Source: a virus
Taxonomy: Duplodnaviria; Heunggongvirae; Uroviricota; Caudoviricetes
Direction: 5' to 3' (one strand)
IMG/VR virus record: IMGVR_UViG_3300021254_000001
Length of the DNA: 64,000 nucleotides
Positions 40,518 through 41,903 of the stretch are shown one piece after another; position 1 is the first letter of the stretch, and each line of letters begins with the position of its first letter. The notes beneath the pieces are model-generated. The model ran no database searches and was not told the origin of the DNA. It saw nothing but the letters and a program-made list of their open reading frames with translations. Made by a program: the position numbers and the translations under genes.

Positions 40518-40715
40518 ATGAATTTTAAAGAATTTGTAGCATGGTGTAATGATCGAGCCGCTGATGGTCGTTGGGATATGGTGGAAGCTATATGTTGCTG
40601 TGACGCTGCAAGTAAAATCTATAAACAACCATTTTGGAAACGAGAAAAAGTATGGCAAAAACAATATAAAGATGATGTTATGCCAATTGTAGAAGCAACT
40701 AATAAAAAAAATTAA
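40518..40715 (+). CDS. hypothetical protein
   Basis: RBS AAAGAGG. Confidence 0.3.
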   Translation: MNFKEFVAWCNDRAADGRWDMVEAICCCDAASKIYKQPFWKREKVWQKQYKDDVMPIVEATNKKN

Positions 40716-40737
40716 AGAAATGGGCTATTGTTAATAT

Positions 40738-40824
40738 GGGTAAGCGCTAGAGTAGGAGAGCTAGGGCGGTCTGTAAAACCGTTGCTGAAAGGCTGAGGTG
40801 GTTCGATTCCACCCTTACCCACCA
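40738..40824 (+). tRNA. tRNA-Tyr(GTA): tRNA-Tyr (anticodon GTA), type II
   Basis: Acceptor GGGTAAG/CTTACCC, then A and CCA. D-stem CTAG. Anticodon arm GCGGT-CTGTAAA-ACCGT. Long variable arm. T-arm GGTGG-TTCGATT-CCACC. Confidence 0.7.
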
Positions 40825-40896
40825 TTAAAAACAGCCATATCAAGATAATTCCAAATATAATATAATATGAGTTTGGTTGTTCTCATATTAATATTT

Positions 40897-40972
40897 GGGT
40901 CGTTAGCTCATCAGATAGAGCATTACACTTTTAATGTAAGGGTAGTTGGTTCGAGCCCAACACGACCCACCA
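40897..40972 (+). tRNA. tRNA-Lys(TTT): tRNA-Lys (anticodon TTT)
   Basis: GGGTCGT/ACGACCC acceptor, then A and CCA. D-arm GCTC-ATCAGATA-GAGC. Anticodon arm TTACA-CTTTTAA-TGTAA. T-arm GTTGG-TTCGAGC-CCAAC. Confidence 0.8.
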
Positions 40973-41385
40973 GGGAAGGAAAACCATAAACCCTTGGAGA
41001 AGATTCGCACTATTCCGCCTAAGTAAAAGTAGAGGGGCAAGTGTATTGCTTAGATTGCATATTTATCTATGCACGTCAGCTGGTCCCTAGTGACGTTAAC
41101 AAAAGGGAGTTTATCGTGGCTAGTAGCGAGACGTCACATTTCTGTTCTAGGGAATAGCCCCTGTGACGCACGAGGAATATGGTAGCTCCATATTGAAAAT
41201 GGGCAGATAGGTGTTCTTCCACACAGGCACTATCTTTGTTGGCTGGCGTCGTTATAACGGTCCCATACGGAGGCGCGCAGCGTGACCTCTACGTCGCTTC
41301 AAGTGGCGAGGTTGCAGGCGGAATAAACGATAAAACCGTTGAGGGAGAGACATTATACAATGTTTCTCCCCGATATAATAAAAAG
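40973..41385 (+). ncRNA. GC-rich (~48% vs ~33% genome) non-coding island, candidate structured RNA of unknown class
   Basis: No ORF of 60 aa or more. Sharp local GC rise. Many short complementary segments, e.g. ACGTCA...TGACGT and GGGAGA...TCTCCC. Sits between tRNA-Lys and an HNH gene. Confidence 0.4.
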
Positions 41386-41387
41386 AG

Positions 41388-41903
41388 GTGAGTAAGATAG
41401 AAGAAATCTGGAAAGATATTCCTAATTACGAAGGTCTATATCAAGCTAGCACTTTAGGTAGAATAAGAAGTTTAACTCGCACACATTTAGAGAAGCCTAT
41501 CATACGAGTCGCTAGTATAGACAAAGATGGATATTTGAAATTGGTTCTTGTGAAAAATAAACAACGTAAAACATTCAGAGTGCATAGATTAGTAGCTGAA
41601 ACCTTTATTCCTAATCCTGAAAACAAGCCACAAGTGAACCACAGAGACGAAAATCCAGCAAATAATTGTGTAACTAATTTAGAGTGGATGACGCCAAAAG
41701 AAAACATCAATTACGGGACAGGCATTGAAAGACGTGCTGCACCTAGCAGGAAACGAGTGCGTTGTATAGAAACAGGTGTTATTTACAGTTCTATCACTGA
41801 CGCAGAAATTAAAACAGGAATTTCTCACGCTCATTTGAGTTTAGTTTGTAATAAAGTAAATGGTAACAAAACCGCTCACGGTTATCATTGGGAATTTATA
41901 TAG
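41388..41903 (+). CDS. HNH homing endonuclease (NUMOD4 plus HNH_3), GTG start
   Basis: IEEIWKDIPNYEGLYQASTLGRIRSL. HRLVAETFIPNPENKPQVNHRDENPANNCVTNLEW. Confidence 0.75.
   Translation: MSKIEEIWKDIPNYEGLYQASTLGRIRSLTRTHLEKPIIRVASIDKDGYLKLVLVKNKQRKTFRVHRLVAETFIPNPENKPQVNHRDENPANNCVTNLEWMTPKENINYGTGIERRAAPSRKRVRCIETGVIYSSITDAEIKTGISHAHLSLVCNKVNGNKTAHGYHWEFI

Follow-up and report, generated by a model that had tools for sequence, protein, structure and literature searches.

The question addressed here is whether a GC-rich, apparently gene-free stretch of about 400 nt, lying directly behind the tRNA cluster of a tailed phage, encodes a structured RNA, and what such an RNA might do. The window, a 64,000-nt stretch of DNA from the IMG/VR record IMGVR_UViG_3300021254_000001, reaches its highest GC content over any 413 nt at this locus (0.484; mean 0.332, sd 0.034). 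The initial annotation had placed a candidate RNA at 40973-41385 and put its GC content at about 48% against about 33%, which agrees with the values obtained: 46.7% for that interval, 48.1% for 40973-41340, 50.7% for the core at 41073-41340 and 33.2% for the window. It had also listed no ORF of 60 aa or more, and the largest overlapping ORFs are indeed of 51 aa (+) and 48 aa (-); in a frame check over the members, no open reading frame is kept across homologues. The locus lies, as described, between tRNA-Lys and an HNH gene in the window, the 3' end of tRNA-Lys at 40972 abutting the RNA start at 40973, while the adjacency to HNH is incidental and found in 0 relatives. The single copy of the octamer TTCTGTTC reported for the locus is present at 41140, in an RNA loop that varies among homologues. 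The same octamer occurs 14 times in the window against 2.6 expected, a count reached in 0 of 100 shuffles, with 12 copies on the + strand (example sites are 6864, 7404, 11658, 13745, 13882, 41140, 44737, 45008 and 60350), and it may serve the phage as a regulatory or binding site.

Relatives were searched with the nearby AAA_24 protein as seed, which gave 23 IMG/VR loci on phage contigs of about 75 kb, most of them carrying the element. An exact-match pattern taken from invariant blocks (AACAAAAGGG...GTGG...GAATARCCC) added further IMG/VR members, two MAG contigs and about 21 metagenome contigs. About 30 distinct homologues with 67-98% identity are known from these IMG/VR, metagenome and MAG contigs. 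The two MAG contigs, labelled Bacilli and Clostridia, are 75-79 kb long and are probably the phage itself. Among GenBank phages, blastn with the element gave no match and megablast with the surrounding 10 kb matched tRNAs only. The best cultured-phage protein match was that of the helicase protein, at no more than 32% identity to Enterococcus phages, and the clade is therefore regarded as uncultured. Wider pattern scans for distant members returned only the minimal variants L082, L083, L085 and L019, besides chance matches in coding DNA. All known members fall in one uncultured phage clade of about 75 kb from gut and rumen, to which the family is confined as far as the searches reach.

The extent of the RNA was defined by homology, positions within it being numbered q (window coordinate minus 40972). 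Its right border follows from the alignment break at 41338/41339 together with the 3' arm of hairpin F. Thus the start of the proposed interval and the presence of an RNA in it stood, but its end did not: the RNA stops at about 41340 and the last ~45 nt belong to an HNH cassette. The window and the relative L002 match as far as 41338 (...AAAACCG), and the match resumes at 41896 (TTATATAGAAAAGAGG...); between these points, exactly at the 3' edge of the RNA, 557 nt in the window stand in place of the 9 nt CCATACTCC of L002. The cassette contains the ORF 41388-41903, which encodes 171 aa with NUMOD4 and HNH_3 domains (Pfam), and a 12-bp hairpin, GGGAGAGACAUU/AAUGUUUCUCCC, at 41343-41370. As 557 nt replace 9 nt of L002, the HNH gene and the hairpin represent an inserted cassette. 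An HNH gene was found downstream of the RNA in none of the relatives examined; the gene is a later insertion, unrelated to the RNA. All the complementary segments pointed out in the initial annotation are present, but they do not have the same standing. ACGTCA (41073) and TGACGT (41091) correspond to helix G, and GCGAGACGTCAC (41126) and GTGACGCACG (41163) contain helix Hy, both upheld by compensatory changes, whereas GGGAGA (41343) and TCTCCC (41365) form the 12-bp hairpin and lie outside the conserved RNA, because they are located in the cassette that the relatives lack. A second free-standing NUMOD4/HNH_3 homing-endonuclease gene was observed at 38146-38610, between tRNA-Met and tRNA-Gln. 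Both HNH genes are located in the tRNA array, and conserved RNA genes may be target sites for homing endonucleases.

The RNA is composed of a 5' module of about 100 nt followed by a core of about 270 nt (q102-q368), the part conserved in every relative; cores in relatives have 270-350 nt, apart from the minimal forms described below. Alignment of 29 core sequences by MAFFT and folding by RNAalifold gave 39 pairs, of which 17 show compensatory changes. A fuller model was made by hand, the covariance models R1 and R2 were built, all members were realigned and the pairs were counted; the hairpins J, C and F, which are variable in length and misaligned, were checked sequence by sequence. The fold has about 12 helices and three loop-to-strand pseudoknots (Table 1), and at least 38 base pairs of the core show compensatory changes. 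In the 5' half of the core (36 pairs, two pseudoknots included) 97.6% of the positions are paired and 18 pairs have changed on both sides; sliding the partner column as a control lowers these values to 32-54% and 2-6 pairs. Helices A, B and D are about 97-100% paired. With 164 G·U but 9 A·C pairs in the helices, the fold is confined to the + strand, which also carries the tRNAs and the neighbouring genes. Against shuffled sequence, the z-score of the folding energy was -3.4 for the + and -2.5 for the - strand. The structured RNA proposed from one sequence is therefore upheld by extensive compensatory changes among about 30 distinct homologues. The features generally expected of a conserved structured non-coding RNA, namely compensatory changes, restriction to one strand and lack of coding potential, were all found, and the element is a conserved, one-strand, non-coding and pseudoknotted fold tied to tRNA genes.

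Table 1. Coordinates of the structured RNA, its helices and pseudoknots, and the genes at its borders.
Feature	Position in window	Strand	Evidence or remark
tRNA-Lys(UUU), encoded CCA	40897..40972	+	ARAGORN; Rfam tRNA 64.8 bits
Whole structured RNA, q1-q368	40973..41340 (3' end about)	+	nhmmer/blastn homology q2-q367 in relatives
5' module, begins GGGAAGGAAAAC	40973..41044 (q1-q72)	+	18 distinct versions; conserved CCGCCU, GAGGGG
Helix P1'	41007-41011 with 41040-41044	+	100% paired; 3 pairs changed on both sides
Variable hairpin UGCAUA/UAUGCA, link from 5' module to core	41056..41073 (to q101)	+	Deleted in L001-type relatives
Helix G, CGUCA.CU/AG.UGACG, 7-nt loop GGUCCCU	41074..41095	+	Three compensatory pairs (e.g. 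A-U 18 / U-A 10)
PK1, loop UCCCU (41084-41088) with AGGGA (41104-41108)	41084..41108	+	96% paired, invariant
Domain I/Hy/Hz with pseudoknot Hx	41115..41172	+	Pair counts in realigned members
Helix I	41115-41118/41169-41172	+	Changes on one side only
Pseudoknot Hx, GCUA with UAGC	41119-41122/41155-41158	+	Y-R pair U-A 18, C-G 9
Helix Hy	41132-41137/41163-41168	+	5/6 pairs compensatory; at least 7 helix sequences
Helix Hz	41150-41152/41160-41162	+	2/3 pairs compensatory
Hairpin H, 7 bp, near-invariant loop UAGCU	41176..41194	+	7/7 compensatory, 100% paired
PK2, UGGG (41200-41203) with CCCA (41262-41265) in loop of hairpin C	41200..41265	+	Covariation, permutation
Variable hairpin J, spanned by PK2	41205-41235	+	
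Helix A	41242-41246/41276-41281	+	A and B together 96.7% paired, 7/9 pairs compensatory; RNAalifold agrees
Helix B	41247-41250/41272-41275	+	Counted jointly with helix A
Small hairpin C	41258-41259/41268-41269	+	Loop is the C-rich strand of PK2
Helix D, GUGACCU/AGGUUGC	41282..41315 (with E)	+	99.6% paired; 2 compensatory pairs
Variable extension E	41292-41297/41303-41308	+	Inserts of 20-70 nt in relatives
3' hairpin F, GGCGG/CCGUU, 14-nt A-rich loop AAUAAACGAUAAAA	41317..41340	+	Folds in 24/24 distinct variants
HNH homing-endonuclease cassette, outside the RNA	41339..41895	+	557-nt insertion vs L002; Pfam

The individual elements of the core differ in the way they are conserved. PK1 spans the invariant linker UUAACAAA, and the AACAAAAGGG motif is invariant in the 29 sequences. 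Being invariant, PK1 is a predicted pairing that is conserved but not proven by covariation. Helix Hy, by comparison of its sequences, takes forms such as CGUCAC/GUGACG, UCGCAC/GUGCGA, CCUUAC/GUAAGG and AUCCUA/UAGGAU, and the consensus of Hx is GGYUA with UARCC. PK2 is found in at least eight co-varying forms, including AUGGG/CCCAU, ACGGG/CCCGU, AAGGG/CCCUU, UGGAG/CUCCA, AGAG/CUCU and CGAGAG/CUCUCG, with a clean double change between L049 and L072 (AGGG/CCCU to AGAG/CUCU). Its own partners outscored swapped partners in 20000 of 20000 permutations, a control that ignores relatedness among the sequences. The four outer pairs of helix D are invariant (G-C, U·G, G·U, A-U). Hairpin F has at least ten different stems and a loop that is always A-rich and 12-16 nt long; in the window, half of its 3' arm has been replaced by the HNH cassette and the hairpin is kept through two G·U pairs. 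The invariant nucleotides gather at the junction of G/PK1, A, D and F and comprise AACAAAAGGG, UUGG, GYGUGAY and GUUGCAG. Natural minimal versions of about 145 nt were found in L019, L082, L083 and L085. L019 and L083 retain helix G with PK1, helix A with a UCCCAU loop, helix D and hairpin F, and adjoin no called tRNA; L082 and L085 have helix A without the C-rich loop. In the minimal versions the G-rich partner of PK2 is relocated into the helix D insert.

Several other pairings were tried and dropped. The minimum free energy fold of the single sequence differs from the comparative fold and includes a 10-bp long-range pairing of UAUUCCGCCU (q39-48) with AGGCGGAAUA (q344-353). This pairing was rejected. 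Against it stands the covariation between the two arms of F (GCCGG/CCGGC, GACGG/CCGUC, GGUGGGG/CCUCACC, among others): CCGCCU does not change along with them, and the long-range pairing is thereby mismatched in L007, L008, L016, L017, L021, L055 and L072. A local hairpin given by RNAalifold at columns 109-112/116-119 of alignment A1 clashes with the strongly covarying Hy. Pairing of the loop UAGCU with GGCUA is compatible but uninformative, and covariation favours GGYUA with UARCC. An acceptor-like closure of the 5' AAGGA with a 3' UCCUU tail was discarded, as the tail is not conserved and occurs also without the 5' module. Hairpin E as a mimic of an anticodon loop fails on its non-conserved loop, and a kissing dimer through the palindromic AGCU of loop H on the palindrome being broken in three variants.

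Unlike the core, the 5' module is an optional part of the RNA. Besides P1', its pairings CC-CCU/AGGGG and AAGG/CCUU are conserved without covariation. Each of the 17 versions in which the 5' flank is present has a CCA immediately before the module, and GAAGG follows 2-3 nt past the CCA in 16 of these 17, the upstream gene being tRNA-Lys, Ser(UGA), Tyr or other. This spacing is similar to the tRNA-tRNA spacing of the same arrays. L009 and L012 are without a window-type 5' module, and their core begins 15-27 nt past a tRNA. A tRNA-Ser(UGA) occupies the position of the variable hairpin in L011, L013, L016 and L055; L016 additionally has a small ORF and tRNA-Cys between module and core, which are about 400 nt apart. 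On account of this gap and of the absence of the module from L009 and L012, module and core may be two separate RNAs. In the window the module starts with GAAGGAAAAC. A short alternative leader, consisting of a hairpin GAC-AAGGNAAA-GUC and then UAUAAAACCCUC, was observed before the core in L009, L016, L082 (upstream of helix G), L083 and L019. This leader is similar to nt 1-23 of the window module (GAAGGAAAAC...AUAAACCCUU), and for this reason the P1' domain may have been inserted into a short leader that is older.

Two further observations concern tRNA-like sequences around the element. In L010, the called tRNA-Lys is separated from the 5' module by about 99 nt (1754-1852) that end in ...CGTCCCA and may be a further tRNA or tRNA-like gene missed by ARAGORN. 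Downstream of the element in L019 (398-510) and in L082, a tRNA-like 5' half (GGTGGCGGAATAGGTAGACGC...) lies beside the minimal variants. ARAGORN with introns allowed made no call on it; a class II tRNA may be interrupted or have degenerated here.

Known RNA families were searched with Rfam 15, using the window at gathering score, 40700-41700 at E<=10 and nine relatives at E<=1, and only tRNAs were matched. RNase P, SRP, 6S RNA, the known self-cleaving ribozymes and phi29 pRNA gave no match (E<=10; relatives E<=1), and neither did the group I/II intron models. The initial annotation had recognised no tRNA T-loop and no signature of tmRNA, RNase P or group II domain V, and the searches agree: ARAGORN finds no tmRNA, a permuted-tmRNA match (14.7 bits, E 1.5) covers the tRNAs and not the element, and RNase P and introns are without an Rfam match at the locus at E<=10. 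No known element, for instance a fragment of an intron, was found to be homologous, an outcome that would have argued against a novel RNA. A group I/II intron or fragment was also rejected on the flanks, which are a complete tRNA and an intergenic spacer, and on the absence of the HNH ORF from relatives. The HEARO model of Rfam (HEARO/IscB omega RNA) has no match, and the ORF next door, of the NUMOD4 and HNH_3 kind and not of the IscB type with RuvC and HNH, is not conserved there. From sequence comparison, the element is a real, well supported and new structured-RNA family absent from Rfam. It may be among the 8,495 covariation-supported structured-RNA candidates obtained from IMG/VR (Fremin et al. 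2023, PMC10690425); none of the members described in the main text of that paper resembles it.

In layout the RNA appears closest to GOLLD and next to ROOL, a likeness of kind and not of family. GOLLD is an Rfam family (Weinberg et al. 2009) with a cryo-EM structure; its 3' region is conserved, its 5' region varies and its linker holds tRNAs (PMC12286853). Both GOLLD and ROOL are found near phage tRNA islands (PMC12286853, PMC5737381). A homo-oligomeric, RNA-only nanocage is a further mark of the two. The present RNA shares with GOLLD the phage or prophage DNA beside a tRNA island, the multiple pseudoknots, the conserved 3' and variable 5' domains and, at times, tRNAs in the linker, which is a resemblance and not proof of homology. 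It differs in size, since GOLLD usually exceeds 800 nt while this RNA has about 368 nt and its minimal forms about 145 nt. No motif shared with GOLLD is recognisable, and the GOLLD model of Rfam gave no match at gathering score, at E<=10 in 40700-41700 or at E<=1 in the nine relatives. ROOL comes from phages and prophages of rumen and gut Firmicutes, lies near tRNAs, contains three pseudoknots, and has an average of 581 nt with six multistem junctions (PMC5737381). Rumen and gut phages, tRNA proximity and the number of pseudoknots are common to both, but the present RNA is smaller, with mostly hairpin-loop pseudoknots and few multi-helix junctions; the ROOL model gave no match in the window, at the locus (E<=10) or in the nine relatives, and size and junction count differ. 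By description only, it can also be likened to species 1 and 2 (rnaD, rnaC) of phage T4, small stable RNAs of the T4 tRNA cluster which are processed together with the tRNAs. The T4 cluster also holds homing-endonuclease genes. Species 1 and 2 have, however, about 120-140 nt and tRNA-like ends, unlike the ~368-nt RNA.

Regarding its role, the reading that we favour, with moderate confidence, is a stable trans-acting RNA made with the phage tRNAs. The RNA would be transcribed together with the tRNA array and its 5' end would be set by maturation of the adjacent upstream tRNA, a proposal drawn from the conserved spacing to CCA, with GAAGG 2-3 nt on, that resembles the spacing between tRNAs. It would then accumulate and act in trans during infection, as proposed for GOLLD and ROOL, with the invariant junction (UUGG, GYGUGAY, GUUGCAG and AACAAAAGGG) serving as the putative functional site for partner binding or higher-order assembly. 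Scans for promoters and terminators predicted no + strand promoter shortly before the RNA and no terminator at hairpin F, and hairpin F with its U-rich tail, given a loop of 12-16 nt, is at best a weak terminator.

A bolder version takes the likeness to GOLLD and ROOL further, and we consider it unlikely. Here the RNA would be a third and much smaller class of "ornate" RNA of tRNA islands, unrelated in sequence to the other two, whose junction is an active site or an assembly interface. It might form an RNA-only multimer, or act on tRNA 3' ends or on a host defence that targets tRNAs, and the ~145-nt minimal versions would define its functional core.

Rather unlikely, too, is a cis-acting leader of the downstream mRNA, either riboswitch-like, a processive antiterminator or a 5' stabiliser left after the tRNA is cut off. 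Downstream ORFs start on the same strand 17-58 nt past hairpin F in most relatives, which leaves no room for a promoter, and the RNA may accordingly stay joined to the downstream mRNA. In some relatives a pyrimidine-rich tail (ACUCCUU) past F could pair with the next ribosome-binding site, and riboswitches often contain H-type pseudoknots with A-rich linkers, which also counts for a leader. But the downstream gene is not conserved, the genes found there belonging to at least four unrelated families besides the HNH gene of the window (a small membrane protein and proteins of 106 aa, 113-132 aa and 185-188 aa). The RNA is also kept where the HNH cassette has been inserted between F and the next gene, the tail past F is not conserved, and 270-370 nt with three pseudoknots go far beyond the needs of a stabiliser.

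The fixed and very short spacing between the CCA and the module would likewise suit a role in maturing the adjacent tRNA, either as a ribozyme that cleaves itself at the 5' border or as a processing platform that offers the junction to RNase P or another nuclease. We hold this improbable. The CCA is encoded and, as tRNA maturation generally goes, a compact fold just downstream would otherwise hinder 3' trimming; the UUGG is invariant and unpaired within a conserved junction, and its UGG might dock the CCA of the tRNA. However, no self-cleaving ribozyme or RNase P was matched in Rfam and no catalytic signature is recognisable. The same reading is difficult to reconcile with L009 and L012, in which the core follows the tRNA by 15-27 nt without the window-type module, and with the minimal L019 and L083, which stand beside no called tRNA.

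The two remaining readings are contradicted by the data. An element acting as DNA (an origin of replication, a site of packaging or of recombination) or a decayed, GC-richer foreign protein gene could account for a GC-rich island in an AT-rich genome beside replication genes (AAA_24, SSB), yet it is very improbable given the excess of G·U over A·C pairs in a one-strand fold, substitutions that are compensatory in helices and not codon-periodic, indels that are not multiples of three and the lack of any frame open across homologues. An RNA tied to the mobile HNH gene, whether an intron remnant, a HEARO/IscB-type guide or the leader of a homing cassette, is largely refuted and the least credible of all: HEARO RNAs are pseudoknotted and lie upstream of HNH-containing ORFs, as this RNA does in the window, but the cassette is a clean insertion absent from relatives, its product is a homing-type enzyme and not IscB, neither intron nor HEARO is matched in Rfam, and no interrupted host gene is present at the flanks.

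The tRNA array contains another stretch of a similar kind. Right after tRNA-Thr, at 38891-39075 (+), lies a second conserved non-coding sequence with a GC content of about 0.43. It has nhmmer matches in relatives (E about 1e-50 to 1e-8), and RNAalifold on 8 sequences gave 49 pairs, 22 of them compensatory, with a long-range closing helix CAACUA/UAGUUG; in Rfam, nothing above noise was matched at E<=10. The stretch is probably a further new structured RNA of this array. The occurrence of a second covarying non-coding RNA in one array points to phage tRNA arrays being hot spots, in general, for RNA genes not yet discovered. Elsewhere in the window, the ORF 32950-34110 (+) encodes an RNA ligase domain (PF09414) and a PHA02142 OB-fold, and the phage tRNAs include Lys(UUU), Glu(UUC), Gln(UUG) and Tyr. 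The combination of the ligase with these tRNAs suggests a strategy of tRNA repair or replacement against anticodon nucleases of the host.

The large RNAs of phage tRNA islands, GOLLD and ROOL, are a long-standing puzzle: their structures have been solved but their functions have not. The RNA described here shares their layout but is independent and far smaller, at about 370 nt with natural forms of about 145 nt, and in it, again, the 3' core is conserved, the 5' part is optional and tRNAs are embedded. Its fold is unusually well supported and compact, and its distribution is narrow. It would offer a compact and tractable system for asking what tRNA-island RNAs do for the phage, and would let the link to tRNA arrays be tested as shared processing versus shared function, for example in countering host defences that target tRNAs.
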